Positions 7,687 through 37,647 of a stretch of 41,357 nucleotides of DNA are shown here, piece by piece; the stretch's first letter is position 1; each line of letters begins with the position of its first letter. The notes beneath the pieces were generated by a model. It was not told the origin of the DNA. It did no database searches and saw nothing but the letters and a program-made list of their open reading frames with translations. Source of the stretch: Nemertoderma westbladi (Eukaryota; Animalia; Xenacoelomorpha). Location of the stretch: contig JAUCBJ010000037.1 in the NCBI GenBank assembly GCA_032718475.1, forward strand, positions 1-41,357. The letters run 5' to 3'. The translations under genes and the position numbers were made by a program.

Positions 7687-7715
7687 ACCTTAACTTTAAT
7701 AATTTATATTTTTAA

Positions 7716-8427
7716 GGGGGGGGTACACCATTTTCGGACAACTCTTCGATTTATCATTCTCAGCGTTTCAAAATTGTTTGGTTTTGGCTAAAATTTAGCA
7801 TATAAGTGCCTAAGATGCTATTCTATATGACAGAAAAAACATTTTTTCCGCTATTTAATATTAGTTAATACTAGTTAACAATAAAAAAAACTTGGTTGCG
7901 CTTAAAACCCTAAGGCTTTTACAGTTTTGAACCTAATCACATGAAAGTTTTTTTATATGATAGATCAAAGATGGGGCAACATAACTACCGGTATCAGGCG
8001 AAATTTTGAGAAAATAATTCTGCACCGCTAGGTGGCGCTGCAAATTTATGCTAATTTTTAGGTTTTTTATAAATAGTATTAAATTTTATTAACAAAAAAT
8101 TTCGAAAAGTTGCCTGATACTTTTATGCAGGGTGGCAATCTAGACACCCACAGGAAGTTTCAGACTAATTACTCAAAAATTGTAGAAGTAGTAGGGTTTT
8201 GAAGTTGACAATTTCATGAAAAAAATATTTGGAGATAATCGACCTTTCATTAGACATAGTAATAGTAATTTCAATAGGAATCCCTAAATGGAAATTTACA
8301 TAACTTGAAAACTAAAAGAGCTATTTAATAGCGGTTTTCAGATTTGTAAACACCATTCAATGGTGCATTATAATAGACCATAAAAAAAATTTCGACATAT
8401 TTTGGACCAAAATGGTGTACCCCCCCC
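7716..8427. mobile_element. MITE with TTAA target-site duplication, Kolobok-like (purine 5' terminus)
   Basis: Perfect 19-bp TIR GGGGGGGGTACACCATTTT / AAAATGGTGTACCCCCCCC flanked by TTAA at 7712-7715 and 8428-8431; no ORF. Confidence 0.85.
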
Positions 8428-13334: not shown

Positions 13335-13452
13335 ATGTCTGGAAATTTGGAAAAAACATCTTCAACTAGAAGCCTTCTGGACGACTTCCCACTGTTCCAG
13401 AAACTTCCGGCATCCTGGTTCATGGAGGTCTGGGACCATTATGATGAAAACG
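13335..13452 (+). CDS. Calbindin/secretagogin-like hexa-EF-hand protein, coding exon 1
   Basis: MSGNLEKTSSTRSLLDDFPLFQKLPASWFMEVWDHYDEN-G|GTAAGT, phase 1; resembles calbindin ASQFFEIWLHFDAD. Confidence 0.8.
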
Positions 13453-13667
13453 GTAAGTCATTGTGTCAGCATGTTGTGTTCTAGAACTAAATATTGTAGC
13501 CCACGTTTTTTATTTAACGCGGAATGCCAGGACTAGCCGGGGTATCCTAGTGTTTTGGTTGTACCTGTACCATCTACCGATGTTCCCCTGTGGTCGCCCA
13601 CCTCATAGCTAAACCTGGTTAAATTCCTAGATTTCACTTCTTTACATGAAACGGATTTTTATTTCAG

Positions 13668-13738
13668 ATAACGGTTACCTTGAAGGTCTGGAGTTGGAAA
13701 AGTTCTTGAAAGACTTAAGTACAAAGCTTGCCGGGAAG
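13668..13738 (+). CDS. Calbindin/secretagogin-like, exon 2
   Basis: TTTCAG| (D)NGYLEGLELEKFLKDLSTKLAGK |GTTAGT; completes EF-hand 1 loop DENDNGYLEGLE. Confidence 0.85.
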
Positions 13739-16700
13739 GTTAGTTCAATTAATTCGGTACAAAGCTTGCCGGGAAGGTTAGTTCAATTAATTCGGTACAA
13801 AGCTTGCCGGGAAGGTTAGTTCAATTAATTCAGTACAAAGCTTGCCGGGAAGGTTAGTTCAATTAATTCGGTACAAAGCTTGCCGGGAAGGTTAGTTCAA
13901 TTAATTCAGTACAAAGCTTGCCGGGAAGGTTAGTTCAATTAATTCAGTACAAAGCTTGCCGGGAAGGTTAGTTCAATTAATTCAGTACAAAGCTTGCCGG
14001 GAAGGTTAGTTCAATTAATTCAGTACAAAGCTTGCCGGGAAGGTTAGTTCAATTAATTCAGTACAAAGCTTGCCGGGAAGGTTAGTTCAATTAATTCGGT
14101 ACAAAGCTTGCCGGGAAGGTTAGTTCAATTAATTCAGTACAAAGCTTGCCGGGAAGGTTAGTTCAATTAATTCGGTACAAAGCTTGCCGGGAAGGTTAGT
14201 TCAATTAATTCAGTACAAAGCTTGCCGGGAAGGTTAGTTCAATTAATTCAGTACAAAGCTTGCCGGGAAGGTTAGTTCAATTAATTCAGTACAAAGCTTG
14301 CCGGGAAGGTTAGTTCAATTAATTCAGTACAAAGCTTGCCGGGAAGGTTAGTTCAATTAATTCAGTACAAAGCTTGCCGGGAAGGTTAGTTCAATTAATT
14401 CAGTACAAAGCTTGCCGGGAAGGTTAGTTCAATTAATTCAGTACAAAGCTTGCCGGGAAGGTTAGTTCAATTAATTCAGTACAAAGCTTGCCGGGAAGGT
14501 TAGTTCAATTAATTCAGTACAAAGCTTGCCGGGAAGGTTAGTTCAATTAATTCAGTACAAAGCTTGCCGGGAAGGTTAGTTCAATTAATTCAGTACAAAG
14601 CTTGCCGGGAAGGTTAGTTCAATTAATTCAGTACAAAGCTTGCCGGGAAGGTTAGTTCAATTAATTCAGTACAAAGCTTGCCGGGAAGGTTAGTTCAATT
14701 AATTCAGTACAAAGCTTGCCGGGAAGGTTAGTTCAATTAATTCAGTACAAAGCTTGCCGGGAAGGTTAGTTCAATTAATTCAGTACAAAGCTTGCCGGGA
14801 AGGTTAGTTCAATTAATTCAGTACAAAGCTTGCCGGGAAGGTTAGTTCAATTAATTCAGTACAAAGCTTGCCGGGAAGGTTAGTTCAATTAATTCAGTAC
14901 AAAGCTTGCCGGGAAGGTTAGTTCAATTAATTCAGTACAAAGCTTGCCGGGAAGGTTAGTTCAATTAATTCAGTACAAAGCTTGCCGGGAAGGTTAGTTC
15001 AATTAATTCAGTACAAAGCTTGCCGGGAAGGTTAGTTCAATTAATTCAGTACAAAGCTTGCCGGGAAGGTTAGTTCAATTAATTCAGTACAAAGCTTGCC
15101 GGGAAGGTTAGTTCAATTAATTCAGTACAAAGCTTGCCGGGAAGGTTAGTTCAATTAATTCAGTACAAAGCTTGCCGGGAAGGTTAGTTCAATTAATTCA
15201 GTACAAAGCTTGCCGGGAAGGTTAGTTCAATTAATTCAGTACAAAGCTTGCCGGGAAGGTTAGTTCAATTAATTCAGTACAAAGCTTGCCGGGAAGGTTA
15301 GTTCAATTAATTCAGTACAAAGCTTGCCGGGAAGGTTAGTTCAATTAATTCAGTACAAAGCTTGCCGGGAAGGTTAGTTCAATTAATTCAGTACAAAGCT
15401 TGCCGGGAAGGTTAGTTCAATTAATTCAGTACAAAGCTTGCCGGGAAGGTTAGTTCAATTAATTCAGTACAAAGCTTGCCGGGAAGGTTAGTTCAATTAA
15501 TTCAGTACAAAGCTTGCCGGGAAGGTTAGTTCAATTAATTCAGTACAAAGCTTGCCGGGAAGGTTAGTTCAATTAATTCAGTACAAAGCTTGCCGGGAAG
15601 GTTAGTTCAATTAATTCAGTACAAAGCTTGCCGGGAAGGTTAGTTCAATTAATTCAGTACAAAGCTTGCCGGGAAGGTTAGTTCAATTAATTCAGTACAA
15701 AGCTTGCCGGGAAGGTTAGTTCAATTAATTCAGTACAAAGCTTGCCGGGAAGGTTAGTTCAATTAATTCAGTACAAAGCTTGCCGGGAAGGTTAGTTCAA
15801 TTAATTCAGTACAAAGCTTGCCGGGAAGGTTAGTTCAATTAATTCAGTACAAAGCTTGCCGGGAAGGTTAGTTCAATTAATTCAGTACAAAGCTTGCCGG
15901 GAAGGTTAGTTCAATTAATTCAGTACAAAGCTTGCCGGGAAGGTTAGTTCAATTAATTCAGTACAAAGCTTGCCGGGAAGGTTAGTTCAATTAATTCAGT
16001 ACAAAGCTTGCCGGGAAGGTTAGTTCAATTAATTCAGTACAAAGCTTGCCGGGAAGGTTAGTTCAATTAATTCAGTACAAAGCTTGCCGGGAAGGTTAGT
16101 TCAATTAATTCAGTACAAAGCTTGCCGGGAAGGTTAGTTCAATTAATTCAGTACAAAGCTTGCCGGGAAGGTTAGTTCAATTAATTCAGTACAAAGCTTG
16201 CCGGGAAGGTTAGTTCAATTAATTCAGTACAAAGCTTGCCGGGAAGGTTAGTTCAATTAATTCAGTACAAAGCTTGCCGGGAAGGTTAGTTCAATTAATT
16301 CAGTACAAAGCTTGCCGGGAAGGTTAGTTCAATTAATTCAGTACAAAGCTTGCCGGGAAGGTTAGTTCAATTAATTCAGTACAAAGCTTGCCGGGAAGGT
16401 TAGTTCAATTAATTCAGTACAAAGCTTGCCGGGAAGGTTAGTTCAATTAATTCAGTACAAAGCTTGCCGGGAAGGTTAGTTCAATTAATTCAGTACAAAG
16501 CTTGCCGGGAAGGTTAGTTCAATTAATTCAGTACAAAGCTTGCCGGGAAGGTTAGTTCAATTAATTCAGTACAAAGCTTGCCGGGAAGGTTAGTTCAATT
16601 AATTCAGTACAAAGCTTGCCGGGAAGGTTAGTTCAATTAATTCAGTACAAAGCTTGCCGGGAAGGTTAGTTCAATTAATTCAGTACAAAGCTTGCCGGGA

Positions 16701-17403
16701 AGGTTAGTTCAATTAATTCAGTACAAAGCTTGCCGGGAAGGTTAGTTCAATTAATTCAGTACAAAGCTTGCCGGGAAGGTTAGTTCAATTAATTCAGTAC
16801 AAAGCTTGCCGGGAAGGTTAGTTCAATTAATTCGGTACAAAGCTTGCCGGGAAGGTTAGTTCAATTAATTCAGTACAAAGCTTGCCGGGAAGGTTAGTTC
16901 AATTAATTCAGTACAAAGCTTGCCGGGAAGGTTAGTTCAATTAATTCAGTACAAAGCTTGCCGGGAAGGTTAGTTCAATTAACTCAGTACAAAGCTTGCC
17001 GGGAAGGTTAGTTCAATTAATTCAGTACAAAGCTTGCCGGGAAGGTTAGTTCAATTAATTCGGTACAAAGCTTGCCGGGAAGGTTAGTTCAATTAATTCG
17101 GTACAAAGCTTGCCGGGAAGGTTAGTTCAATTAATTCAGTACAAAGCTTGCCGGGAAGGTTAGTTCAATTAATTCAGTACAAAGCTTGCCGGGAAGGTTA
17201 GTTCAATTAATTCGGTACAAAGCTTGCCGGGAAGGTTAGTTCAATTAATTCAGTACAAAGCTTGCCGGGAAGGTTAGTTCAATTAATTCGGTACAAAGCT
17301 TGCCGGGAAGGTTAGTTCAATTAATTCAGTACAAAGCTTGCCGGGAAGGTTAGTTCAATTAATTCAGTACAAAGCTTGCCGGGAAGGTTAGTTCAATTAA
17401 TTC
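13718..17403 (+). repeat. 38-bp tandem array (97 copies) spanning the exon 2 splice donor
   Basis: Unit AGTACAAAGCTTGCCGGGAAG|GTTAGTTCAATTAATTC = last 21 nt of exon 2 + first 17 nt of intron 2; 3686 bp / 38 = 97. Confidence 0.97.
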
Positions 17404-18063
17404 TATTACTTATTTTTAGCTACTACAGTAACTAATATTTAAAAACGAACAGAAGTTTGATTTGTGGATTCTTCAACGATAGTTGCGGACCAAGCAAGAC
17501 CTTGGAGGGGAGGGTAGGGGTATGGGGGGGGGGGGGATTAGATGGTACGATAGGGGTGATATATAGGGGGTTATTGAAAGGTGAAAAATTTGAAGTGAAA
17601 ATTAGAATATCAGTGCTAATATTCCACAACATGTAATACTACGTAATAACTATTTACTTGTATGCTTGTATGTAAAGTAGAACTTTGGGGTGTGATGATC
17701 CGAGTGGCTTTGTTACACGAACGAACGTTAGTGAGTGAGTGAAAATAAAGCCACGAGGATCAGAACACTGTAAAGTACTTTGTAACAAGTATGTATGTAG
17801 TTTTATTCCAAAATTTTAATATTACGAAATGATTGTACATATACATGATAAGTGATAGAAACTGCACAAATTATATTAGTTACTGTATAAATAAATGTAA
17901 AAATGACATAAATTATGTTATAAATAAGTTAGCTTATATTTATGGTGGCGTTTGGAGCAATATTATAATAATATAGCTAGGCCCTACTGGTTATTGATAG
18001 CTATACCCCGCCTACCGGTAGGTAATGCAGTAGGCCTATCTGGCTGTCAGGCAAATTTCCACC

Positions 18064-18159
18064 TATTGTTTACGTGGTATCCAATGACGGCGTTAAGTAA
18101 TGTCCCATCAGTGGACTGGACATTACTTAACGCCGTCATGGGTTACCACGTAAACAATA
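18064..18159. repeat. Inverted repeat, about 42-bp arms
   Basis: TATTGTTTACGTGGTATCCAATGACGGCGTTAAGTAATGTCC ... GGACATTACTTAACGCCGTCATGGGTTACCACGTAAACAATA. Confidence 0.8.
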
Positions 18160-19332
18160 ACACCAAATACAATACTAAATGTACAGGCCAATACAATGCT
18201 GTAATGTTCTCTAAAGTCTTTCATACACTGAGGTCGATAAAATGAGGACCAGTTGAATTACGGGGGGGAAAAACAAAGGAGTGACGCCCCGCCCACCCAC
18301 CCTTATCTTCTTGTAACAGCTATCGAAAAAGCAGCCTTTGGGTAAGCTCCGCCTTCTACCGACTGTTTTCATGAACATGCTGGTTTGCTTTTGCTTGCTA
18401 TAGATATTATATAGGCATGCTGTTGTTTCGCTACGCAAGAGATAAATCATCATTTTTAGTGCCGCCCTTCCGTCCGTAGTCGGCAATGATAAAGTCAACA
18501 TAATAATTTGTACAAAACATCTAACATGTTGGGAGTTTGGGAGGAACTTCAACTTCCAAGCATCCAACTTATTAATCCAAATCGTCTTAAATCTTATTAT
18601 GCAAAGGGAAATGGAAGCCAATTAAATTAAATATCCTTGATTAACGTCGTACACAGTACGAATGCCGAAATTTTGTCAATATAAGCTGACATGAATGACT
18701 GGAAGGATAATTTAGAAAGCAATGGTGACAGGCAATCATTGGACCATGGGTTGATTATGCAGCTAGTGGTACATTCTAATTCCCTGCAAGGGAATTTAAA
18801 CTGTTGCTTGCCATCAAAAAGTGAATTATTTAAAAACGAGTAATATTTTTCTTCCTGGAGCTCCATAAAGAGGGGGGGGGGGGGGGGGGATACTTTAAAT
18901 TCATTCCTCTCCAGACATCGACGCAAATAACAGCTGATTACGAGCGACAATTGATCTGTAACCTGTGCTATTGACTTTTTTAACAACCGTAATTTGTAAA
19001 CATATGTAGGCCTATGTAACTTTACGTTGTCAATAGTTAATATATTTTTTTCACATTGGGTAAATGATGTTGAAAGGTAGGTCTAATATATATTTGAAAA
19101 CTGGTATGATTATCTAATTATATATTTCACTGGAAATAAAATAGCCGCTGACCACGTCGTATAATTTGACGAGCAGGCGAGATCAATGGTAAAAAATTAA
19201 GGGCTTATAAGGGGAATAAAGCTAATTTATTTTGAGGTAAAATTAAAATTAATTCTTAAAATGGGTAACTGGTAATTTATATTAGGTTTTCATTCGAAAT
19301 AATTCATTTTATCACACGGTATTATGCTATGT

Positions 19333-19406
19333 GTCTCTGTGGCGCAATCGGCTAGCGCGTTAGACTGTTAATCTAAAGGTTGGTGGTTCGAGCCCACCCA
19401 GGGACG
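19333..19406 (+). tRNA. tRNA-Asn (GTT), intronic
   Basis: GTCTCTG/CAGGGAC acceptor stem, A-box TGGCGCAATCGG, anticodon arm TTAGA-CTGTTAA-TCTAA, T-arm GGTGG-TTCGAGC-CCACC, TTTT shortly downstream; near-identical to metazoan tRNA-Asn. Confidence 0.93.
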
Positions 19407-19439
19407 ATGCCATTTTGTAATACTTATATTATTTGTTTT

Positions 19440-19503
19440 ACTCAAAATAATACTCCCGGTACTTAACTTAATTAAGTTAAGTACCGGGAGTATTATTTTG
19501 AGT
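19440..19503. repeat. Perfect 64-bp palindrome
   Basis: ACTCAAAATAATACTCCCGGTACTTAACTTAA|TTAAGTTAAGTACCGGGAGTATTATTTTGAGT. Confidence 0.95.
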
Positions 19504-19749
19504 CTTAGTCAATATTTATTTTGAATGGGTAATAATATATTACTTATGCCATTTCAAAAAATCGGTAACAGGCATATTATTTGGGATGCAGTCAACCTTT
19601 TAAAATATTATGTTGACTGTATAATTTTATACAGTCAACATAATATTTGAAAAAGTTGACTGCATCCCAAATAATATGCCTGTTACCGATTTTTTGAAAT
19701 GGCATAAGTAATATATTATTACCCATTCAAAATAAATATTGACTAAGAC
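19502..19749. repeat. Near-perfect 248-bp palindrome (foldback)
   Basis: Arms of about 123 bp, GTCTTAGTCAATATTT... / ...AAATATTGACTAAGAC, 2 mismatches seen, centre at 19625/19626. Confidence 0.92.
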
Positions 19750-20132
19750 GTATACTTTTATAGCTTTAAGAAGTATACGCTCCACGATTATTGTTCTTGG
19801 TTGGTCTGCTGATTGACTTTTTTTTATTAGAAGATCATGCCACTGTAATCTTTTACGTTGATACTGAACACTTTTAATTTTCCGAGATGGGATATGCGTC
19901 CGTCAATTGGGAGTGATTGGGAGTCATTGGGAGTGATGCTATTGATTCAATCAACATTCAACCCTGTACAAGGGAAAATAACCGTACATGAAATATTCTT
20001 GTATAAGAACCAAGATCAAAATATTGTCTTATATTGTCATTATATATTCAACGTGCTACCAATTTCAATAATTTTGTTTTAACTATTATGGCATTATATA
20101 ATGTAAACCTACCGTCCCAATCGATATTACAG

Positions 20133-20222
20133 GTTCCTCAGGATTCCGAATTACAAAAAATGAAGAAGAAACTTATGAAGAAGTACGATAAAGCGGGTGA
20201 TGGTAGAATATCTCTAGAAGAG
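20133..20222 (+). CDS. Calbindin/secretagogin-like, exon 3
   Basis: TATTACAG| VPQDSELQKMKKKLMKKYDKAGDGRISLEE |GTTAGT, phase 0/0; EF-hand 2. An in-frame alternative acceptor lies 9 nt downstream. Confidence 0.82.
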
Positions 20223-22298
20223 GTTAGTGGCTGGGTGGGTGATGGTAGAATATCTCTAGAAGAGGTTAGTGGCTGGGTGGGTGATGGTAGAATATCTCTA
20301 GAAGAGGTTAGTGGCTGGGTGGGTGATGGTAGAATATCTCTAGAAGAGGTTAGTGGCTGGGTGGGTGATGGTAGAATATCTCTAGAAGAGGTTAGTGGCT
20401 GGGTGGGTGATGGTAGAATATCTCTAGAAGAGGTTAGTGGCTGGTTGCGTGGGTGATGGTAGAATATCTCTAGAAGAGGTTAGTGGTTGGGTGGGTGATG
20501 GTAGAATATCTCTAGAAGAGGTTAGTGGCTGGGTGGGTGATGGTAGAATATCTCTAGAAGAGGTTAGTGGCTGGTTGCGTGGGTGATGGTAGAATATCTC
20601 TAGAAGAGGTTAGTGGCTGGGTGGGTGATGGTAGAATATCTCTAGAAGAGGTTAGTGGTTGGGTGGGTGATGGTAGAATATCTCTAGAAGAGGTTAGTGG
20701 CTGGGTGGGTGATGGTAGAATATCTCTAGAAGAGGTTAGTGGCTGGGTGGGTGATGGTAGAATATCTCTAGAAGAGGTTAGTGGCTGGGTGGGTGATGGT
20801 AGAATATCTCTAGAAGAGGTTAGTGGCTGGGTGGGTGATGGTAGAATATCTCTAGAAGAGGTTAGTGGCTGGTTGCGTGGGTGATGGTAGAATATCTCTA
20901 GAAGAGGTTAGTGGTTGGGTGGGTGATGGTAGAATATCTCTAGAAGAGGTTAGTGGCTGGGTGGGTGATGGTAGAATATCTCTAGAAGAGGTTAGTGGCT
21001 GGTTGCGTGGGTGATGGTAGAATATCTCTAGAAGAGGTTAGTGGCTGGGTGGGTGATGGTAGAATATCTCTAGAAGAGGTTAGTGGTTGGGTGGGTGATG
21101 GTAGAATATCTCTAGAAGAGGTTAGTGATTGGGTGGGTGATGGTAGAATATCTCTAGAAGAGGTTAGTGGCTGGGTGGGTGGGTGATGGTAGAATATCTC
21201 TAGAAGAGGTTAGTGGCTGGGTGGGTGATGGTAGAATTTCTCTAGAAGAGGTTAGTGGCTGGGTGGGTGATGGTAGAATATCTCTAGAAGAGGTTAGTGG
21301 TTGGGTGGGTGATGGTAGAATTTCTCTAGAAGAGGTTAGCGGCTGGGTGGGTGATGGTAGAATATCTCTAGAAGAGGTTAGTGGTTGGGTGGGTGATGGT
21401 AGAATTTCTCTAGAAGAGGTTAGCGGCTGGGTGGGTGATGGTAGAATATCTCTAGAAGAGGTTAGTGGCTGGGTGGGTGATGGTAGAATATCTCTAGAAG
21501 AGGTTAGTGGCTGGGTGGGTGATGGTAGAATATCTCTAGAAGAGGTTAGTGGTTGGGTGGGTGATGGTAGAATTTCTCTAGAAGAGGTTAGCGGCTGGGT
21601 GGGTGATGGTAGAATTTCTCTAGAAGAGGTTAGCGGCTGGGTGGGTGATGGTAGAATATCTCTAGAAGAGGTTAGTGATTGGGTGGGTGATGGTAGAATA
21701 TCTCTAGAAGAGGTTAGTGGCTGGGTGGGTGATGGTAGAATATCTCTAGAAGAGGTTAGTGGCTGGGTGGGTGATGGTAGAATATCTCTAGAAGAGGTTA
21801 GTGGTTGGGTGGGTGATGGTAGAATTTCTCTAGAAGAGGTTAGTGGCTGGGTGGGTGATGGTAGAATTTCTTTAGAAGAGGTTAGTGGTTGGGTGGGTGG
21901 GTGATGGAAGAATATCTCTAGAAGAGGTTAGTGATTGGGTGGGTGATGGAAGAATATCTCTAGAAGAGGTTAGTGATTAGGTGGCTGATGGTAGAATATA
22001 TCTAGAAGATGTTAGTGGCTGGGTGGGTGATGGTAGAATATATCTAGAAGAGGTTAGTGGCTGGGTGGGTGATGGTAGAATATCTCTAGAAGATGTTAGT
22101 GGCTGGGTGGGTGATGGTAGAATATATCTAGAAGAGGTTAGTGGCTGGGTGGGTGATGGTAGAATATCTCTAGAAGAGGTTAGTGGCTGGGTGGGTGATG
22201 GTAGAATTTCTCTAGAAGAGGTTAGTGGCTGGGTGGGTGATGGTAGAATATCTCTAGAAGAGGTTAGTGGCTGGGTGGGTGATGGTAGAATATATCTA
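20195..22298 (+). repeat. 42-bp tandem array spanning the exon 3 splice donor, left part (about 50 copies)
   Basis: Unit GGGTGATGGTAGAATATCTCTAGAAGAG|GTTAGTGGCTGGGT = last 28 nt of exon 3 + first 14 nt of intron 3. Confidence 0.96.
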
Positions 22299-22299
22299 T

Positions 22300-22923
22300 C
22301 TATAATATGTCTAATCTATCTTTAAGTTGAACATAAATTGCTCTTTTCGCTGGAAACAGACAAGAAATGGCATCACCATTAAACTTGAAATTCTCGCTAA
22401 CACATATGGGAGTAACTACCCTGTTGGGGGCCTTTACATAAGTAAACTCAGTAATGCAACTCGGGTGAGTTTCAAGCACAGATATGATTTTGTTTCTAAT
22501 TTCCTCAGCTGTATCTATGCTACAGAAATCGAGCATGCAATGCTTCACTATGTTAGAATGTTTGATAGTAATTAATTCATCTTTATAATGCTTCCCACGT
22601 ACTACAACCATTGCCTTACTGAAAGTCGTTGCTGCTGGCCTTCCACGGGGAGAAGAAAGACGTGCACGAGATGGAGTTATTCGTCGTCGGCTTACTGACC
22701 CAGTTGGAACCGATGCATATGGTGCAAATTGACGATTTAGTTCAGCTATTAACTCACGCCTATTTGAACTAGGAACTGAAGCAATATCGCAACTGGTGCC
22801 ACAATGTGAACAAAACTTATCCTCAGCACTAAGAGTTTTACTGCAATTCTGGCAGATCATAGTTCTGCATTGACGGCGGGAAATTGTCAAATATTTTTTC
22901 AAGCTACAAATGCAATCTGTCAA
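22300..22923 (-). CDS. Hypothetical transposon-borne protein with N-terminal zinc ribbon (CQNC...FCSHCG); probably truncated
   Basis: 207-aa ORF (first Met at about 22860, MICQNC) with two CxxC pairs; its stop lies at the insertion junction. Confidence 0.5.
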   Translation of the reverse strand: MTDCICSLKKYLTISRRQCRTMICQNCSKTLSAEDKFCSHCGTSCDIASVPSSNRRELIAELNRQFAPYASVPTGSVSRRRITPSRARLSSPRGRPAATTFSKAMVVVRGKHYKDELITIKHSNIVKHCMLDFCSIDTAEEIRNKIISVLETHPSCITEFTYVKAPNRVVTPICVSENFKFNGDAISCLFPAKRAIYVQLKDRLDIL

Positions 22924-23063
22924 TAATATTTTCCTAATAAATGTTTTATATTGTAAAGTATGTAGGCTTCTACATACGGTGGCTGAATTCCAAAATTAAT
23001 TATTAGAATGAAATGGTGACTTACATGTGGTGGTGAACAGGCATTATTCCTTGGCTTAACGGG

Positions 23064-23277
23064 CGCAGTGGCAGTACGGCTAATGTCGCATTACGGAAAG
23101 TCGCGTTACGGCTAATCTCTCAAAAATTTAGCTGTAACGCGACAATTAGCCGTAACGCGACAATTAGCCGCAACGCGACTTTTAGAGTAGCCGTACCGCG
23201 ACTTTGAAAGTCGCGTTACAGCTAATCTCTCATAAAATTAGCCGTAACGAGACATTAGCCGTAACGAGACCACACCG
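23064..23277. mobile_element. Nested Mutator-like MITE
   Basis: 9-bp flanking direct repeat CTTAACGGG / CTTAACGAG; termini CGCAGTGG / CCACACCG; internal inverted arrays of GTCGCGTTACGGCTAA. Confidence 0.6.
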
Positions 23278-23366
23278 CTTAACGAGCCTAAAAGATTCTC
23301 CCATTCATAATATAATTAATTTTGGCCCAATTCAGCCAACGTATCAACAGCATAATACTAATAATG

Positions 23367-23647
23367 GCCCATGTGAAGAATACCAGACTTTCTGCCGTTA
23401 TATTTCACTTTGCGGTTACCCCCCATGTGAAGAATACCAGGTTTTGACCAAAAACACAGGTTACAGAAGGGCTGAATTTAACCAAAACAATAAACGAAAT
23501 AGTATATGTATGTACAGGTTATAAGACAGAAATAAACGCATATAAAACATTTATTAAAGATAAATTTAAAAAAAATTAAAAATCTTAATATAAAATTCCA
23601 ATAAAAGGTCGTCCGAAAAGTGAAATCCTGGTATTCTTCACATGGGC
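23367..23647. mobile_element. Nested MITE remnant
   Basis: 20-bp inverted repeat GCCCATGTGAAGAATACCAG / CTGGTATTCTTCACATGGGC, with a further direct copy near 23421. Confidence 0.5.
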
Positions 23648-24065
23648 GTATGGGCGCAAATTATAAACTGTAACACTTAATATAGTACATCAATTTAATG
23701 GTTTGTTGAATTATTAATTTTTATTGAATTTAAAAGAATCACATTAAGTAGAAATCATGCATCTGACTACTGCTAAACAAAAATTCAGTCCAGAATAGGG
23801 ACCGCCGCGCCGCGCGGCTATTGTACCAAAGTACAAATACAATATTGCAACTCTGGCTTGTATAAACAAACATGCTACCCTAAACTCGACACGACGCCCC
23901 TTAATACAGACAGGAGGCAGAGATAATGTTACGGTATGCTGAAATGAATGATATAGAAAGAAGGCCTATTTAATACCTATTATATATATCCCTATTGCAC
24001 CTATAAGGGTATTTCCTCTGCTGCTATTGGATGGCCGTTTCCTACTGTCCCAATTAACAGCCAAT

Positions 24066-26709
24066 CGCGATTTTTTTCGCGAGATGTGTATTTTTCTCGC
24101 GAGTTTAATCATTTATCTCGCGAGATTAATTATTTTCTCGCGAGTTTAATCATTTATCTCGCGAGATTAATTATTTTCTCGCGAGTTTAATCATTTATCT
24201 CGCGAGATTAATTATTTTCTCGCGAGATTAATTATTTTCTCGCGAGTTTAATTATTTTCTCGCGAGTTTAATCATTTATCTCGCGAGATTAATTATTTTC
24301 TCGTGGGATTAATTATTTTCTCGCGAGTTTAATCATTTATCTCGCGAGATTAATTATTTTCTCGCGAGTTTAATCATTTATCTCGCGAGATTAATTATTT
24401 TCTCGCGAGTTGAATCATTTATCTCGCGAGATTAATTATTTTCTCGCGTGTTTAATCATTTATCTCGCGAGATTAATTATTTTCTCGCGAGTTTAATCAT
24501 TTATCTCGCGAGATTAATTATTTTCTCGCGAGATTAATCATTTATCTCGCGAGTTTAATCATTTATCTCGCGAGATTAATTATTTTCTCGCGAGTTTAAT
24601 CATTTATCTCGCGAGATTAATCATTTATCTCGCGAGTTTAATCATTTATCTCGCGAGATTAATTATTTTCTCGCGAGTTTAATCATTTATCTCGCGAGAT
24701 TAATTATTTTCTCGCGAGTTTAATCATTTATCTCGCGAGATTAATTATTTTCTCGCGAGTTTAATCATTTATCTCGCGAGATTAATTATTTTCTCGCGAG
24801 TTTAATCATTTATCTCGCGAGTTTAATCATTTATCTCGCGAGATTAATTATTTTCTCGCGAGTTTAATCATTTATCTCGCGAGATTAATTATTTTCTCGC
24901 GAGTTGAATTATTTATCTCGCGAGATTAATTATTTTCTCGCGTGTTTAATCATTTATCTCGCGAGATTAATTATTTTCTCGCGAGTTTAATCATTTATCT
25001 CGCGAGATTAATTATTTTCTCGCGAGATTAATCATTTATCTCGCGAGTTTAATCATTTATCTCGCGAGATTAATTATTTTCTCGCGAGTTTAATCATTTA
25101 TCTCGCGAGATTAATTATTTTCTCGCGAGTTTAATCATTTATCTCGCGAGATTAATTATTTTCTCGCGAGTTTAATCATTTATCTCGCGAGATTAATTAT
25201 TTTCTCGCGAGTTTAATCATTTATCTCGCGAGATTAATTATTTTCTCGCGAGTTTAATCATTTATCTCGCGAGATTAATTATTTTCTCGCGAGTTTAATC
25301 ATTTATCTCGCGAGATTAATTATTTTCTCGCGAGTTTAATCATTTATCTCGCGAGATTAATTATTTTCTCGCGAGTTTAATCACTTATCTCGCGAGATTA
25401 ATTATTTTCTCGCGAGTTTAATCATTTATCTCGCGAGTTTAATCATTTATCTCGCGAGATTAATTATTTTCTCGCGAGTTTAATCGTTTATCTCGCGAGA
25501 TTAATTATTTTCTCGCGAGTTGAATCATTTATCTCGCGAGATTAATTATTTTCTCGCGTGTTTAATCATTTATCTCGCGAGATTAATTATTTTCTCGCGA
25601 GTTTAATCATTTATCTCGCGAGATTAATTATTTTCTCGCGAGATTAATCATTTATCTCGCGAGTTTAATCATTTATCTCGCGAGATTAATTATTTTCTCG
25701 CGAGTTTAATCATTTATCTCGCGAGATTAATTATTTTCTCGCGAGTTTAATCATTTATCTCGCGAGATTAATTATTTTCTCGCGAGTTTAATCATTTATC
25801 TCGCGAGATTAATGATTTTCTCGCGAGTTTAATCATTTATCTCGCGAGATTAATTATTTTCTCGCGAGTTTAATCATTTATCTCGCGAGATTAATTATTT
25901 TCTCGCGAGTTTAATCATTTATCTCGCGAGATTAATTATTTTCTCGCGAGTTTAATCATTTATCTCGCGAGATTAATTATTTTCTCGCGAGTTTAATCAT
26001 TTATCTCGCGAGATTAATTATTTTCTCGCGAGTTTAATCATTTATCTCGCGAGATTAATTATTTTCTCGCGAGTTTAATCATTTATCTCGCGAGATTAAT
26101 TATTTTCTCGCGAGTTTAATCATTTATCTCGCGAGATTAATTATTTTCTCGCGAGTTTAATCATTTATCTCGCGAGTTTAATCATTTATCTCGCGAGATT
26201 AATTATTTTCTCGCGAGTTTAATCATTTATCTCGCGAGATTAATTATTTTCTCGCGAGTTGAATCATTTATCTCGCGAGATTAATTATTTTCTCGCGTGT
26301 TTAATCATTTATCTCGCGAGATTAATTATTTTCTCGCGAGTTTAATCATTTATCTCGCGAGATTAATTATTTTCTCGCGAGATTAATCATTTATCTCGCG
26401 AGTTTAATCATTTATCTCGCGAGATTAATTATTTTCTCGCGAGTTTAATCATTTATCTCGCGAGATTAATTATTTTCTCGCGAGTTTAATCATTTATCTC
26501 GCGAGATTAATTATTTTCTCGCGAGTTTAATCATTTATCTCGCGAGATTAATTATTTTCTCGCGAGTTTAATCATTTATCTCGCGAGATTAATTATTTTC
26601 TCGCGAGTTTAATCATTTATCTCGCGAGATTAATTATTTTCTCGCGAGTTTAATCATTTATCTCGCGAGATTAATTATTTTCTCGCGTGTTTAATCATTT
26701 ATCTCGCGA
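24066..26709. repeat. Satellite of alternating 21- and 20-bp monomers (41-bp dimer), each with CTCGCGAG
   Basis: TTTAATCATTTATCTCGCGAG + ATTAATTATTTTCTCGCGAG, roughly 125-130 monomers; recurring variant blocks indicate higher-order structure. Confidence 0.96.
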
Positions 26710-26773
26710 CTAAATTCAGAAGAATATCAAGGGGAAATAAAATGTCGAATAAAAATACTAAAAGTATGCCATA

Positions 26774-28475
26774 TAGAAGAGGTTAGTGGCTGGGTGGGTG
26801 ATGGTAGAATTTCTCTAGAAGAGGTTAGTGGTTGGGTGGGTGATGGTAGAATTTCTTTAGAAGAGGTTAGTGGCTGGGTGGGTGATGGTAGAATTTCTCT
26901 AGAAGAGGTTAGTGATTGGGTGGGTGATGGTAGAATATCTCTAGAAGAGGTTAGTGGTTGGGTGGGTGATGGTAGAATATCTCTAGAAGAGGTTAGTGGT
27001 TGGGTGGGTGATGGTAGAATATATCTAGAAGAGGTTAGTGGCTGGGTGGGTGATGGTAGAATATCTCTAGAAGAGGTTAGTGGTTGGGTGGGTGATGGTA
27101 GAATATCTCTAGAAGAGGTTAGTGGTTGGGTGGGTGATGGTAGAATTTCTCTAGAAGAGGTTAGTGGCTGGGTGGGTGATGGTAGAATTTCTCTAGAAGA
27201 GGTTAGTGGCTGGGTGGGTGATGGTAGAATTTCTCTAGAAGAGGTTAGTGGCTGGGTGGGTGGGTGATGGTAGAATTTCTTTAGAAGAGGTTAGTGGCTG
27301 GGTGGGTGATGGTAGAATTTCTCTAGAAGAGGTTAGTGGTTGGGTGGGTGATGGTAGAATTTCTCTAGAAGAGGTTAGTGGTTGGGTGGGTGATGGTAGA
27401 ATTTCTCTAGAAGATGTTAGTGATTGGATGGGTGATGGTAGAACTTATTTAGAAGAGGTTAGTGGCTGTGTGGGTGATGGTAGAATTTCTCTAGAAGAGG
27501 TTAGTGGCTGGGTGGGTGATGGTAGAATTTCTCTAGAAGAGGTTAGTGGCTGGGTGGGTGGGTGATGGTAGAATATCTCTAGAAGAGGTCAGTGATTGGG
27601 TGGGTGATGGTAGAATTTCTCTAGAAGAGGTTAGTGGCTGGGCGGGTGATGGTAGAACTTATTTAGAAGAGGTTAGTGGCTGGCTGGGTGGGTGGGTGAT
27701 GGTAGAATTTCTCTAGAAGAGGTTAGTGGCTGGGTGGGTGATGGTAGAACTTATTTAGAAGAGGTTAGTGGCTGGGTGGGTGGGTGATGGTAGGATTTCT
27801 CTAGAAGAGGTTAGTGATTGGGTGGGTGATGGTAGAATTTATCTAGAAGATGTTAGTGGTTGGGAGGGTGATGGTAGAATTTCTCTAGAAGAGGTTGGTG
27901 GCTGGGTGGGTGGGTGATGGTAGAATTTCTCTAGAAGAGGTTAGTGATTGGGTGGGTGATGGTAGAATTTATCTAGAAGAGGTTAGTGGTTGGGAGGGTG
28001 ATGGTAGAATTTCTCTAGAAGAGGTTAGTGGTTGGGTGGGTGATGGTAGAACTTATTTAGAAGAGGTTAGTGGCTGGGTGGGTGGGTGATGGTAGAATTT
28101 CTCTAGAAGAGGTTAGTGATTGGGTGGGTGATGGTATAATTTTTCTAGAAGAGGTTAGTGATTGGGTGGGTGATGGTAGAATTTATCTAGAAGAGGTTAG
28201 TGGCTGGGTGGGTGGGTGATGGTAGAATTTCTCTAGAAGAGGTTAGTGATTGGGTGGGTGATGGTAGAATTTTTCTAGAAGAGGTTAGTGATTGGGTGGG
28301 TGATGGTAGAATTTATCTGGAAGAGGTTAGTGGCTGGGTGGGTGGGTGATGGTAGAATTTCTCTCGAAGAGGTTAGTGATTGGGTGGGTGATGGTAGAAT
28401 TTTTCTAGAAGAGGTTGGTGATTGGGTGGGTGATGGTAGAATTTATCTAGAAGAGTTGGTGGTTGGGTGGGTGAT
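26774..28475 (+). repeat. 42-bp exon 3 donor array, right part (about 40 copies, progressively diverging)
   Basis: Same unit as 20195-22298, with more substitutions and GGGT slippage toward the 3' end. Confidence 0.94.
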
Positions 28476-28622
28476 TGAGGAATATATATAATTCGTGGGT
28501 GGATATCTCCAGAGGAGGACGTGGTTTTTGGTAGGTGACGGTACGGTTCACTGGAAGAGGGAAGAGCTTGCATACCATTGACATTATTCAGTTCCACTTC
28601 ACTCCACATCATTTTGTTTTAG

Positions 28623-28766
28623 ATGACTTCGATATTGCCCACAGACCAAAACTTCATTCTATTGTTTCAACGGGATCAGAAACTAACATCGAGTGTTGAA
28701 CTTCTCACATTGTGGCGAAAATACGACCTGGACAAGACTGGCTTTATTAACCAACAAGAACTTAAA
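28623..28766 (+). CDS. Calbindin/secretagogin-like, exon 4
   Basis: TTTTAG| MTSILPTDQNFILLFQRDQKLTSSVELLTLWRKYDLDKTGFINQQELK |GTTAGT; matches the family signature LPxEENFLLLF...SSVEFMxxWRKYD. Confidence 0.92.
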
Positions 28767-28883
28767 GTTAGTTTTTAAAAATACAATTATTATAGCTGGC
28801 TATAAGACCGAATAATAATAATAATAACATAACTGTTTGTAATTTAACCTATTAGTTAAATTCATGTTTATTAATTTTTGCAG

Positions 28884-29067
28884 CTCTTTGTAAAAGATTG
28901 GATCGAGAAAGCCAATCCTTCAGGTGTGACAGACCAAAAGTTAGACGAATACGTTCAATGCATCCTAAAGAACTTTGTCAAGGAAGATAAACTCTCTTTA
29001 CATGACATGGCGAGATTGTTAGACACACGGACTAACTTTCTGGTTGAGTTTGAAGATGCATCGAAAG
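28884..29067 (+). CDS. Calbindin/secretagogin-like, exon 5
   Basis: TTTTGCAG| LFVKDWIEKANPSGVTDQKLDEYVQCILKNFVKEDKLSLHDMARLLDTRTNFLVEFEDASK-G |GTAATA, phase 1; KLxEY and MARLL..NFL signatures. Confidence 0.9.
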
Positions 29068-29199
29068 GTAATAGTTGTGATTATAATATATATTGTCTTT
29101 ATATCTATTATTGTCATCATGCACTTCTAGTAACTAACACACAATTAAATGATGTTTCGTTTATTCGTATTGCAGTTTATATATAAGAATATAGATTAT

Positions 29200-31130
29200 G
29201 GTGTCACTCTCGGTGCTTTTTGTTTTAGGCAGAGAGAAGGGTGTCACTCTCAGTGCTTTTTGTTTTAGGCAGAGAGAAGGGTGTCACTCTCAATGATTTT
29301 TGTTTTAGGTAGAGAGAAGGGTGTCACTCTCAGTGCTTTTTGTTTTAGGTAGAGAGAAGGGTGTCACTCTCAGTGCTTTTTGTTTTAGGTAGAGAGAAGG
29401 GTGTCACTCTCAGTGATTTTTGTTTTAGGTAGAGAGAAGGGTGTCACTCTCAATGCTTTTTGTTTTAGGTAGAGAGAAGGGTGTCACTCTCAGTGATTTT
29501 TGTTTTAGGTAGAGAGAAGGGTGTCACTCTCAATGCTTTTTGTTTTAGGTAGAGAGAAGGGTGTCACTCTCGGTGCTTTTTGTTTTAGGTAGAGAGAAGG
29601 GTGTCACTCTCAGTGATTTTTGTTTTAGGTAGAGAGAAGGGTGTCACTCTCAATGCTTTTTGTTTTAGGTAGAGAGAAGGGTGTCACTCTCGGTGCTTTT
29701 TGTTTTAGGTAGAGAGAAGGGTGTCACTCTCAGTGATTTTTGTTTTAGGTAGAGAGAAGGGTGTCACTCTCAGTACTTTTTGTTTTAGGTAGAGAGAAGG
29801 GTGGCACTCTCGGTGCTTTTTGTTTTAGGTAGAGAGAAGGGTGTCACTATCAGTGCTTTTTGTTTTAGGTAGAGAGAAGGGTGTCACTCTCAGTGATTTT
29901 TGTTTTAGGTAGAGAGAAGGGTGTCACTCTCAGTACTTTTTGTTTTAGGTAGAGGGAAGGGTGTCACTCTCAGTGCTTTTTGTTTTAGGTAGAGAGAAGG
30001 GTGTCACTATCAGTGCTTTTTGTTTTAGGTAGAGAGAAGGGTGTCACTCTCGGTGCTTTTTGTTTTAGGTAGAGAGAAGGGTGTCACTATCAGTGCTTTT
30101 TGTTTTAGGTAGAGAGAAGGGTGGCACTCTCGGTGCTTTTTGTTTTAGGTAGAGAGAAGGGTGTCACTATCAGTGCTTTTTGTTTTAGGTAGAGAGAAGG
30201 GTGTCACTCTCAGTGATTTTTGTTTTAGGTAGAGAGAAGGGTGTCACTCTCAGTACTTTTTGTTTTAGGTAGAGGGAAGGGTGTCACTCTCGGTGCTTTT
30301 TGTTTTAGGTAGAGAGAAAGGTGTCACTCTCAGTGCTTTTTGTTTTAGGTAGAGAGAAGGGTGTCACTCTCGGTGCTTTTTGTTTTAGGTAGAGAGAAGG
30401 GTGTCACTATCAGTGCTTTTTGTTTTAGGTAGAGAGAAGGGTGTCACTCTCGGTGCTTTTTGTTTTAGGTAGAGAGAAGGGTGTCACTATCAGTGCTTTT
30501 TGTTTTAGGTAGAGAGAAGGGTGTCACTCTCAGTGATTTTTGTTTTAGGTAGAGAGAAGGGTGTCACTCTCAGTACTTTTTGTTTTAGGTAGAGAGAAGG
30601 GTGGCACTCTCGGTGCTTTTTGTTTTAGGTAGAGAGAAGGGTGTCACTATCAGTGCTTTTTGTTTTAGGTAGAGAGAAGGGTGTCACTCTCAGTGATTTT
30701 TGTTTTAGGTAGAGAGAAGGGTGTCACTCTCAGTACTTTTTGTTTTAGGTAGAGGGAAGGGTGTCACTCTCAGTGCTTTTTGTTTTAGGTAGAGAGAAGG
30801 GTGTCACTATCAGTGCTTTTTGTTTTAGGTAGAGAGAAGGGTGTCACTCTCAGTGATTTTTGTTTTAGGTAGAGAGAAGGGTGTCACTCTCAGTGCTTTT
30901 TGTTTTAGGTAGAGAGAAGGGTGTCACTCTCGGTGCTTTTTGTTTTAGGTAGAGAGAAGGGTGTCACTCTCAATGATTTTTGTTTTAGGTAGAGAGAAGG
31001 GTGTCACTCTCAGTGATTTTTGTTTTAGGTAGAGAGAAGGGTGTCACTATCAGTGCTTTTTGTTTTAGGTAGAGAGAAGGGTGTCACTCTAAAATATTTT
31101 TGTTTTAGGTAGAGAGAAGGGTGTCACTCT
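29200..31130 (+). repeat. 40-bp tandem array (48 acceptor copies) spanning the exon 6 splice acceptor
   Basis: Unit CAGTGCTTTTTGTTTTAG|GTAGAGAGAAGGGTGTCACTCT = 18 nt of acceptor + first 22 nt of exon 6; AG ends at 29228, 29268 ... 31108. Confidence 0.97.
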
Positions 31131-31236
31131 AAAAGATTTCGAAAAGGTTTTTAACTATTACGATAAATCTCAAACGGGTTACCTTGAAAATGAAGAAATT
31201 GATGCTTTCGTCAAGGATTTCTTTGAGTTGGCTTAT
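31109..31236 (+). CDS. Calbindin/secretagogin-like, exon 6
   Basis: TTTTAG| (G)REKGVTLKDFEKVFNYYDKSQTGYLENEEIDAFVKDFFELAY |GTAAGT; EF-hand 5; phase agrees with exon 5. Confidence 0.88.
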
Positions 31237-31380
31237 GTAAGTTTTCTGTCATCAATCTTTAAATGTAGGTAGATCCTCTGCGCACAGTTTTTCAACTTTG
31301 GTGTAATTAATTTGACATTATGGACGAAGCAAAGCGAAAAAAAACAAAATTCACCTTTTGATAGAGTTAAATATATTTAT

Positions 31381-31472
31381 TTAAAGTAAATTCAATTTAC
31401 TTTAAGTTAATTAAATTTACTTTTTTAAGTAAATTTAATTTGCTTTAAGTAAATTAAATTTACTTTAAGTAA
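31381..31472. repeat. Short AT-rich quasi-palindromic tandem repeat (about 21-bp unit, about 4 copies)
   Basis: TTAAGTAAATTAAATTTACT-like units. Confidence 0.6.
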
Positions 31473-31663
31473 AGCCTATTGAGCCTGGTTTCAGCTGGTA
31501 GGATTAACCTGTTCACAACCTTTTGCTATGGAAGCCTGAAAACAAGAATAGACGTGGTGGACAGCCAATGGCTTGCCAATGGCCTGCTCAAGTAAATCGG
31601 ACTTCAGAATAGGGATGAACTGGGAAATTGTATGGCTGGCCGTAAGATCTGGGTGCGCTGTTG

Positions 31664-32730
31664 TTGTGTCCGCCGGTAGGGGGTGCTATGTTTCTGGGTC
31701 CGCCGGTAGGGGGTATTATGTTTCTGGGTACGCCGGTAGGGGGCGGTATTTTTATGGGTCTGTCGGTAGGAGGCGCCATGTTTCTGGGTCCGCCGGTCGG
31801 GGGTGCTATGTTTTTGGGTCCGCCGGTTGGGACTGCTATGTTTGTGGGTCCACCGGTAGAGGGTGCTATGTTTCTGGGTCCGCCGGTAGGGGCTGCTATG
31901 TTTGTGTGTCCGCCGGTATGGAGTGCTATGTTTTTGGGTCCGCCGGTTGGGACTGCTATGTTTGTGGGTCCACCGGTAGAGGGTGCTATGTTTCTGGGTC
32001 CGCCGGTAGGGGCTGCTATGTTTGTGTGTCCGCCGGTTGGGGGTACTATGTTTTTGGGTCCGCCGGTTGGGAGTGCTATGTTTTTAGGTCCGCCAGTAGG
32101 GGGTGCTATGTTTCTGGGTCCGCCGCCGCTAGGGGGTGCTATGTTTCTGGGCACGCCGGTAGTGGGTGGTATTTTAATGGGTACGCGCCGGTAGGGGCCC
32201 CTAAGTTTCTGGGCCCGCCGGTAGGGGGTGCTATGTTTCTGGGTCCGTCGGTAGGGGGTGCTATGTTTTTGGGTCCGCCGGTAGGGGGTACTATGTTTCT
32301 GGGTCCGCCGGTAGGGGGTGCTATGTTTGTGGGTCCGCCGGTAGGGGCTGCTATGTTTCTGGGTCCGCCGGTAGGGGGTGCTATGTTTTTGGGTCCGCCG
32401 GTAGGGGGTGCTATGTGTCTGGGTCCGCAGGTAGGGGCTGCTATGTTTGTGGGTCCGCCGGTAGGGGCTGCTATGTTTCTGGGTCCGCCGGTAGGGGGTG
32501 CTATGTTTTTGGGTCCGCTGGTAGTGGGTGCTCTGTTTCTGGGTACGCCGGTAGGGGGCGGTATTTTTATGGGTCCGCCGGTAGGGGCTGCTATGTTTGT
32601 GGGTCCGCCGGTAGGGGCTGCTATGTTTCTGGGTCTGCCGGTTAGGGCGCTATGTTTCTGTGTTCCCGGGAAGGGGCTGCTATGTTTCTGGGTCCGCCGG
32701 TAGGGGGCGCTATGTTTGTGGGTCCCGTAG
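31664..32730. repeat. 30-bp GC-rich minisatellite (about 35 copies) in intron 6
   Basis: Unit GGGTCCGCCGGTAGGGGGTGCTATGTTTCT with many variants. Confidence 0.95.
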
Positions 32731-33133
32731 AGGACTCTTTCTTCATTTTTTAAGTTGACATCCATAATGACGAAAGGCAGACCAATCAAACATACATGTT
32801 TCATGTAAGTTGGCGAGGTGGTGAAGCGGTACTCACTGTATGCGCATACAATGGCGCCTAAATAATAATAATTTAATATAAAATATAAATATAAAAATGG
32901 CTCATACCATTTTTACCTTAAAAGTTTTCAGATTAATGCAGATTCTGCTTAGAACTTAGCAATTTTCTGTACCAAGTCGTATAGTGCATAAGGTGTCCTA
33001 CCCTGTCGAAGACACCTACCTCAATAATTTGTTATATTCAAAGATATGCGACCGAACCATTATATTGGCCCGGCTTATGGGCTTATATATTATTTAGTTA
33101 TATAATTAATGATTATCGCAAACATATTTACAG

Positions 33134-33268
33134 CCTGGGATTACCATTGGACAAATAGATCGATTTAAAGGCGGCCTAATGGGCCTGTGCAAAGTCGACC
33201 AGGATAAGGACGGGAAGATAAGCAAAAAGGAGCTAGCCATGATATTAATCAACGCTAAGGACAAGTGA
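33134..33268 (+). CDS. Calbindin/secretagogin-like, exon 7 (last)
   Basis: TTTACAG| PGITIGQIDRFKGGLMGLCKVDQDKDGKISKKELAMILINAKDK*; EF-hand 6; AATAAA at 33509 and 33548. Total CDS 870 nt = 289 aa. Confidence 0.88.
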   Translation, partial: PGITIGQIDRFKGGLMGLCKVDQDKDGKISKKELAMILINAKDK

Positions 33269-35738: not shown

Positions 35739-36441
35739 GTTATTAATATTAATAAAGTCAAGTACATCTAATGCCAACATTGATTATTACAACTACTAAT
35801 TGAAACCAAGATAGTCTAGTCTGCCTGTAGTATGGTCATAGTATGAATATTGTTTGACGGAACCCGGCAGACCTACTTCATCACCAAACTCGAGACTCCT
35901 CTGATAACATAATGATTTATAGGCAAATTTGTTAAATTATTAGTGAAAAAAATAATATCGTCAGTTTTTTGTATATTTTCTACTTTTTAATATATCAAAA
36001 AAGTAATTAGGAATTGGAGAACATTGTTTGGTTGTAATGGCCACTGTGGGTGCAATAAAAAAAGAAATCTTAAATGATTAGTTGATATTAATTCAATTTA
36101 CCGCCATTCGAGGCTGTTAAATTTGTTTTGTTACGTTAAATATTTACAAATAAAAAATATATTAATAAGATTCCTCCTGAGTAATGGAAAAATTAATGTT
36201 TATTGTCTCTTTATTTCCACCATATTTATAATAATTATACTCTCAACAGCTTTGGAGATTATTATATGTAAAACTACCCGAATAAGTTATTTTACAACTA
36301 AATAAATAAGCCTACTGCACAACATTCACTTTATGTATTAGCATTAAAATTCAGTTCGGATTATTTTGTTTTAAATAATGTCCCATGTTTATTTTTCTGG
36401 ACTGTTTATGATTTATATACCCAGAGGTTCCTTGTATTCTA

Positions 36442-36571
36442 TTATAGACCGCTGGTGCATCCGTTTTGTTCCATCGGTGTTTCTTTTAGAATATCCGTCG
36501 CACATCTAGCAAAGACAGACCACGCACGATCAATATCCTTTGGCTGAGTGTAATAGTTTCCTATCGAAAAC
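36442..36571 (-). CDS. DDC: Aromatic L-amino acid decarboxylase-like, last exon
   Basis: TTTAG| (R)FSIGNYYTQPKDIDRAWSVFARCATDILKETPMEQNGCTSGL*; phase agrees with the previous exon. Confidence 0.8.
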
Positions 36572-37447: not shown

Positions 37448-37647
37448 CTGATTACGTATTTTCCGCTAATGCGTGTTGGAACACAATAAATCCCACCATC
37501 TTTGTTCGCCATGGCCAGAAGTTGCTCGTTAGTTTTGTCCGACGCTTTCAGTCGGAAACAAACTAGACTCAGCAAGACATTGTTTGAAACTTCAAAGCGA
37601 TTATCAGTGAGAACGAGTTCCTGGAATTGCTTAGCTAATGCCACATG
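37448..37647 (-). CDS. DDC: Aromatic L-amino acid decarboxylase-like, exon
   Basis: TTTTCAG| HVALAKQFQELVLTDNRFEVSNNVLLSLVCFRLKASDKTNEQLL...GKYVI-AG |GTATCT; LVCFRLK signature. Confidence 0.88.

Follow-up and report, generated by a model that had tools for sequence, protein, structure and literature searches.

Three splice-junction-spanning minisatellites of the mirage kind in one calbindin-family gene of Nemertoderma westbladi

The stretch of DNA analysed here, referred to below as the window, comprises 41,357 nucleotides of the xenacoelomorph Nemertoderma westbladi (GCA_032718475.1, contig JAUCBJ010000037.1, positions 1 to 41,357 of the forward strand). It holds a calbindin-family gene in which three exon-intron boundaries are each repeated in a tandem array of 48-97 copies. 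The gene model consists of seven exons (13335-33268, plus strand) that yield an intact open reading frame (ORF) of 289 amino acids, with every intron running from GT to AG. Of six listed runs, four (X1-X4) contain the sequence; their assembled contigs were compared with two stretches of the window, and the exons and the evidence for each are as follows.

13335..13452, plus strand: exon 1, coding part (ORF model; the GT..AG intron 1 is skipped in X3 and X4)
13668..13738, plus strand: exon 2, ending in the AG/GT donor 2 (ORF model; an X3 contig passes directly into exon 3)
20133..20222, plus strand: exon 3, beginning at an AG/GT acceptor without an array and ending in the AG/GT donor 3 (ORF model; offsets in the X3 contig equal the authentic length)
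28623..28766, plus strand: exon 4 (ORF model; spliced contigs; secretagogin and calbindin matches)
28884..29067, plus strand: exon 5, ending in the AG/GT donor 5, which has no array (ORF model; spliced contigs)
31109..31236, plus strand: exon 6, starting at the true acceptor, which is the last copy of array A3 (ORF model; in X3 and X4 exon 5 is followed by the unique continuation of exon 6)
33134..33268, plus strand: exon 7, coding part to the stop codon (ORF model only)

Calbindin, calretinin and secretagogin are hexa-EF-hand proteins of about 260-295 amino acids. Exon 4 matches the structures of secretagogin (E 1.4e-17) and calbindin (E 7.1e-17), secretagogin is also the best match of exon 3, and the translated protein shares 131 of 287 residues with the homologue P0001 and has five canonical-looking EF-hand loops. 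Judged from these alignments, the gene is a member of the calbindin/calretinin/secretagogin family, an assignment made at the level of the family and not of a subfamily. We also note that the fourth EF-hand loop (exon 5, 28960-29000) has a degenerate look and is two residues shorter than in P0001.

The three arrays lie at donor 2 (A1), donor 3 (A2) and acceptor 5 (A3), and A2 is interrupted by an insertion.

13718..17403, plus strand: A1, 97 copies of 38 bp, each with 21 nt of the end of exon 2 and 17 nt of the start of intron 2 (Tandem Repeats Finder; unit contigs in X1 and X2)
20195..22298, plus strand: proximal A2, about 49 copies of 42 bp, each with 28 nt of the end of exon 3 and 14 nt of the start of intron 3 (Tandem Repeats Finder)
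22299..26773, no strand assigned: 4.5-kb insertion that splits A2 inside one unit at a TA and carries palindromic elements and a 41-bp array
26774..28475, plus strand: distal A2, about 40 further units, more diverged (Tandem Repeats Finder)
28476..28561, plus strand: decayed A2 tail, two to three eroded units (alignment score 51, reached by 0 of 1000 shuffles)
29200..31130, plus strand: A3, 48 copies of 40 bp, each with 18 nt of the end of intron 5 and 22 nt of the start of exon 6 (Tandem Repeats Finder; unit contigs in X1 and X2)

The repeat calls and the ORF model bear out the coordinates, the periods (38, 42 and 40), the exon-plus-intron design and the direction of the arrays given in the original prediction, and a listing of the junctions agrees with it that all three amplified junctions read AG/GT and that introns 1, 4 and 6 have no such junction. 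Its figure of more than 200 decoy splice sites also stands, the arrays together holding about 230 (96 in A1, 87 in A2 and 47 in A3). Its account of A2 and A3 was right on design and position but left out the split and decay of A2 and the distinctness of true acceptor 5. Similarly, the arrays that it described in the gene hold, but two further arrays away from the junctions, and the AG/GT at acceptor 2 and donor 5, were missing from it.

Array A1 contains only three types of unit, 85 of 96 units being identical, and the 9-mers at all 96 decoy donors are the same as that of true donor 2. These decoys are out of frame, and their use would shift the reading frame. Array A2 totals about 88 units of 42 bp with 87 donor-like decoys, 76 of them identical over 12 nt, and its divergence from exon 3 increases with distance from the exon (Spearman 0.75, 87 units). 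In A2 the reading frame stays open, with no stops, at the first five decoy donors and is broken by 4-nt indels from the sixth unit onward. Of 12 variants in the exon-derived nucleotides of A2, 6 are synonymous where 25% would be expected, a borderline result (P 0.051) on which we do not rely. The insertion in intron 3 is younger than A2. The most eroded A2 unit (28515-28561) and present exon 3 differ at three third codon positions, all synonymous, and by its sequence the unit looks like a relic of an earlier exon 3, the proximal units having tracked the exon.

Array A3 supplies 47 decoy acceptors, 45 of which combine a T-rich tract with AG/GT, while the first two units read AG/GC. The array has a terminal direct repeat of 11 nt and a higher-order pattern at a lag of eight units (4 of 5000 shuffles), and over its 22 exon-derived nucleotides no divergence gradient was found (Spearman 0.07). 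Its last unit is unique and identical to the head of exon 6 in 30 of 31 positions, so that the "intron" half of the units may in part be eroded exon. The intron part of true acceptor 5 is unlike that of all 47 decoys. Indeed, CTAAA occurs at about -16 to -20 only at the true acceptor, where 45 of 47 decoys have CAG, CGG-type or similar sequence, and we take CTAAA to be closer to the branch-point consensus. The unique last unit likely helps the true acceptor to win. When the seven nearest A3 decoys are translated, all seven run into stops. Just upstream of A3 (29133-29175), ACTAAC, a T-rich tract and TTGCAG, in this order, form another good-looking acceptor; it is unused in the spliced contigs, and its use would give an immediate stop. 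The gradient and decayed tail of A2, the lag-8 pattern of A3 and the insertion are marks of ordinary repeat turnover.

The reality of the arrays was assessed from X1, a possible source of the window and hence not independent, and X2, which comes from a different sample and study and whose flanks carry substitutions and indels of their own. Unit contigs of A1, A2 and A3, including unit-to-unit sequence, are found in both at depths far above unique DNA, and the exit of A1 into unique intron 2 sequence is present in X1. The three arrays are therefore real and occur in two DNA samples, the lengths in the window (such as the 97 copies of A1) being as assembled. Depth ratios, a crude hint only because contig depth is not copy number, are 21-58 in X1 and 7-11 in X2 for A1 (against 97 in the window), 77-205 and 38-47 for A2, and 24-78 and 28-38 for A3; they hint that array lengths vary between samples. 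An assembly or amplification artefact would account for the near-homogeneity of A1 and its depth ratios, and no long read that crosses an array was seen, but we hold it to be highly improbable, as high-depth unit contigs occur in samples from different studies, X1 contains the A1 exit, and the variant patterns, the gradient, the decayed tail and the insertion are signs of real evolution.

Use of the splice sites was read from X3 and X4. Both are on record as "DNA?", and since they cover exons only and skip the GT..AG introns 1 and 4, we read them as transcript assemblies; they are assembled contigs, in which rare isoforms drop out. A single 1532-nt contig of X3 holds exons 1-6 in order, and its offsets are too short to accommodate a further unit at any of the amplified junctions (donors 2 and 3, acceptor 5). 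X4 concurs for the last two of these, its contig ending before donor 2. No X3 or X4 contig was found to match the intronic units of A1 or A3. In the main spliced form the authentic sites are joined directly, and no array unit lies between the exons. Transcripts with other exon boundaries, which the original prediction had named as evidence that would tell against it, are not what these contigs contain, for they join the modelled boundaries at the three junctions.

The same contigs bear on the proposal that the arrays are tolerated or else selected as a splicing rheostat, in which copy number would tune productive splicing or add 14-amino-acid repeats through the in-frame A2 donors. Tolerance fits the observations. 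Selection is very unlikely, as only authentic junctions appear in the spliced contigs and there is no evidence of conservation; moreover, the in-frame, stop-free run of A2 donors that would favour it ends after five units, A1 is out of frame throughout, and the nearest A3 decoys lead to stops. Two further points would suit a rheostat: the crude depth ratios suggest a difference in A1 length between samples, and the human CBS and 6-16 genes use one or two pseudo-sites nearby, according to the summary in PMC1557585.

Two additional arrays of the gene span no junction.

24092..26709, no strand assigned: about 64 copies of 41 bp with a palindromic core (Tandem Repeats Finder; the unit occurs nowhere else in the window)
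31668..32725, no strand assigned: about 35 copies of 30 bp in intron 6, GC-rich (Tandem Repeats Finder)

All six large array segments reported by Tandem Repeats Finder fall within the calbindin-family gene, where the five large arrays occupy 13,028 of 19,934 bp, and the same program found no arrays of comparable size in the remaining 21,423 bp of the window. The gene is thus a general repeat hotspot, and three of its five large arrays span junctions. The units of A1, A2 and A3 have no copy elsewhere in the window and are locus-specific within it. Introns 1 (215 nt) and 4 (117 nt) are free of arrays; intron 5 would shrink to 150 nt without its array, and removal of the insertion together with collapse of A2 would bring intron 3 to about 76 nt.

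If tandem duplication of AGGT creates introns (the Rogers model), the arrays might represent intron gain in progress. Introns 2 and 5 read AG/GT at both ends, and the position of intron 5 presumably matches none in vertebrate calbindins, which we count in favour of this reading; the model has also been proposed for the minisatellites termed mirages (PMC3087553). The heads of the introns, however, resemble the heads of the next exons, and their tails those of the previous exons, over at most 3-5 nt, and unique sequence lies at the far end of every array intron. The alignment of exon 4 to chain 6fie_B covers about residues 81-127, limits that would fit the vertebrate CALB1 boundaries (introns 2 and 3), and the apparent agreement of intron 3 with such a boundary likewise speaks against recent gain. 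A literature search found no vertebrate calbindin intron positions, the accessible part of PMC7552167 giving only "11 exons". Creation of the introns by the arrays was rejected because the introns are not end-to-end copies of flanking exon sequence, and intron gain in progress is the least probable of the readings weighed here. The earlier view that the arrays grew at pre-existing introns is upheld, the lack of likeness between intron heads and next-exon heads showing that the arrays are not the cause of the introns.

Whether three junction arrays are surprising depends on the size of the introns in which they were seeded. Viable seeds were defined as 40-nt segments that are either wholly intronic or span a junction and include no fewer than 6 nt of intron (donors) or 18 nt (acceptors). 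With compact introns (76-215 nt, long ones trimmed to their 75-nt ends) the junction share of such seeds is 0.35 and the probability of at least three junction arrays among five is 0.24, a GC filter mattering little; when only G-rich seeds are allowed, the share rises to 0.59 and the probability to 0.67. Compact ancestral introns are plausible, given the lengths of introns 1 and 4 and of collapsed intron 5, and given that the insertion post-dates A2. A splicing-coupled mutational process is not required if the introns were short at seeding.

The best explanation, and one that we consider probable, is ordinary minisatellite birth in a once-compact gene, filtered by survival, with the exon-proximal sites in use. 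On this explanation a duplication of about 40 bp would be born by slippage or microhomology, of which the 11-nt terminal direct repeat of A3 may be a remnant. Duplications lying wholly in an exon would be purged, and those spanning a junction would keep the exon whole, their extra copies falling into the intron; with introns of 76-215 nt about a third of viable seeds would be of this latter kind, and more if G-rich seeds were favoured. The arrays would then grow and be homogenised by slippage and unequal exchange, the exon-proximal units staying closest to the exon. Decoys would be silenced by exon-proximal choice (the first donor and the last acceptor), with most errors removed by nonsense-mediated decay, and the choice of acceptor may proceed by exon definition, aided by the unique last A3 unit. 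According to PMC13167724, tandem duplication mediated by microhomology is a general phenomenon whose products are for the most part neutral and are removed from coding DNA.

Several observations weigh against this explanation. With the present-day introns, arrays excluded, the junction share of seeds is only 0.055 and the probability falls to 0.0015, or 0.0004 with the GC filter. Compact ancestry is unproven for A1, which looks young and adjoins the 2.7-kb remainder of intron 2, and a comparison of the ends of A1 found no terminal microhomology. The model leaves unexplained both the weak AG/GT bias and the fact that three unrelated units all measure 38-42 bp. Because rare forms drop out of contigs, low-level use of the decoys is also possible.

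The small probability under present-day introns is likewise an argument for a process coupled to splicing or transcription (R-loops, RNA-templated repair or small circles) that would seed or amplify junction duplications. Unit lengths are tight, all three junction arrays are G-rich on the sense strand, and the globin paper calls the formation of mirages unclear (PMC3087553). The units, however, are genomic, consisting of exon plus intron and not of spliced sequence, so that they bear no mark of an mRNA template, and the gene also holds the two non-junction arrays, one with the same G skew. In addition, the window was selected out of very many for its junction arrays, which bears on all of these values, and a probability near 0.001 is expected from such a selection. 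We regard a coupled process as unlikely, although it is the foremost of the alternatives.

The AG/GT bias can be stated more exactly. Five of the 12 junctions of the gene read AG/GT, and arrays are found at three of these five versus none of the seven others, acceptor 2 and donor 5 being the two that are AG/GT but array-free. The probability that all three arrays fall on AG/GT by chance is 0.045 when pooled, 0.067 when stratified by donor and acceptor, and 0.077 when three junctions of a neighbouring gene are added, all of these being post hoc values. That neighbour (36400-41140, minus strand) is decarboxylase-like, its final exons having been translated only and its name DDC being that of the original prediction; as claimed there, its last intron (about 876 nt) is AG/GT at both ends and has no array.

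Such a bias could arise from a survival filter. At AG/GT junctions the interval from unit to unit itself runs from GT to AG, so that a transcript spliced at a decoy could be spliced once more, and this would yield exactly the normal mRNA. The ratio of three in five to none in seven is what this filter would produce, 45 of the 47 A3 decoys have the T-rich tract and AG/GT that it needs, and dual-specific AGGT sites located in tandem repeats are enriched 8.4-fold, human UBC making use of them (PMC10809524). Against it, the chance values are no lower than 0.045-0.077 and post hoc, the human F7 donor array sits at UGG/gu and not at AG/GT (PMC1557585), and the AG in A1 and A2 is preceded by the purine-rich end of an exon, which makes a poor context for an acceptor. 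Intermediate junctions were not seen in the contigs, which would hardly show them. The filter is about as unlikely as a coupled process, if anything a shade more so, and the same low credence attaches to the broader proposal that junction arrays arise or survive preferentially at AG/GT and form self-correcting recursive-splicing ladders, with 50-100 decoys per intron in this lineage. Within the coverage of our literature search, which left out subscription papers, no genome-wide test of junction-array enrichment was found.

Elsewhere in the window, an intronless single-ORF spermine synthase of 379 amino acids lies at 6308-7447 (minus strand), its best named matches being to lancelet (56%) and sea star (54%). 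A GC-rich segment at 37750-39450, in an intron of the minus-strand gene, resembles by eye a decayed non-LTR retroelement. tRNA-Asn(GTT) is called at 19332-19407 and 40338-40411, both intronic and possibly tRNA-derived repeats. Palindromes or inverted repeats are found at 19440-19749, 18064-18159, 23056-23282 and 7706-8437, the longest arms measuring 123 nt at 98%, and these elements are likely small non-autonomous mobile elements. A tandem duplication of 288 bp with 89% identity lies outside genes at 1171-1734.

The original prediction knew of no described system like this one, and on that point it does not stand. Lancelet genes contain "mirage" minisatellites, tandem repeats that span an exon-intron boundary and occur as a 5' and a 3' type. 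Units measure 10-160 bp, length is unstable, splicing stays normal and the origin is called unclear; mirages are reported from Adh3, the globins BflGb6 and BflGb9, troponin C and PGBD5 (PMC3087553; PMC3902484). Donor-spanning variable number tandem repeats are similarly described in human F7 IVS7 (37 bp, 5-9 copies), CBS IVS13, 6-16, LMNB2 and PDGF intron 4, and in F7 experiments show that only the most upstream of the identical donors is used (PMC1557585). A literature search for a VNTR at human UPF3A/CUL4A returned nothing relevant.

The arrays of N. westbladi share the anatomy of the lancelet mirages. The true junction is the terminal copy, units of 38-42 bp lie within the reported size range, splice signals are kept, main splicing is undisturbed, the units evolve in concert with distinct edge units (the A2 gradient and the ends of A3), and both donor and acceptor forms occur. 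The three junction arrays are thus separate mirage minisatellites, a known kind of repeat. They extend mirages to an invertebrate other than a lancelet and to high copy number, and they offer a natural test bed for splice-site choice, in which 96 donors of one sequence, a ladder of in-frame donors and 47 nearly identical acceptors stand beside a main transcript that uses the exon-proximal sites. If a genome-wide AG/GT excess or stepwise removal proved true, the survival of repeats would be tied to recursive splicing and intron growth.

The host here is not a lancelet, copy numbers are 48-97 versus 3-6 in the lancelet globins, and three arrays of near-equal period lie in one gene. The human repeats resemble our donor arrays in unit length and in having the true donor within the first unit, with identical pseudo-sites after it; they differ in being single arrays per gene, at donors only, with at most 25 copies, and the F7 junction is not AG/GT. 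The coding repeats of human UBC and VCX3A, in which AGGT dual-specific splice sites are described (PMC10809524), share with our arrays one AGGT per unit, so that multiples of the unit are bounded by GT and AG. Those sites are in use and belong to coding repeats, whereas here the repeats are intronic, the true partners are separate and no use was seen; the idea of re-splicing at AG/GT is thus already partly in print for coding repeats. What is distinctive of the gene described here is only that three such arrays, similar in period and high in copy number, occur together in it.

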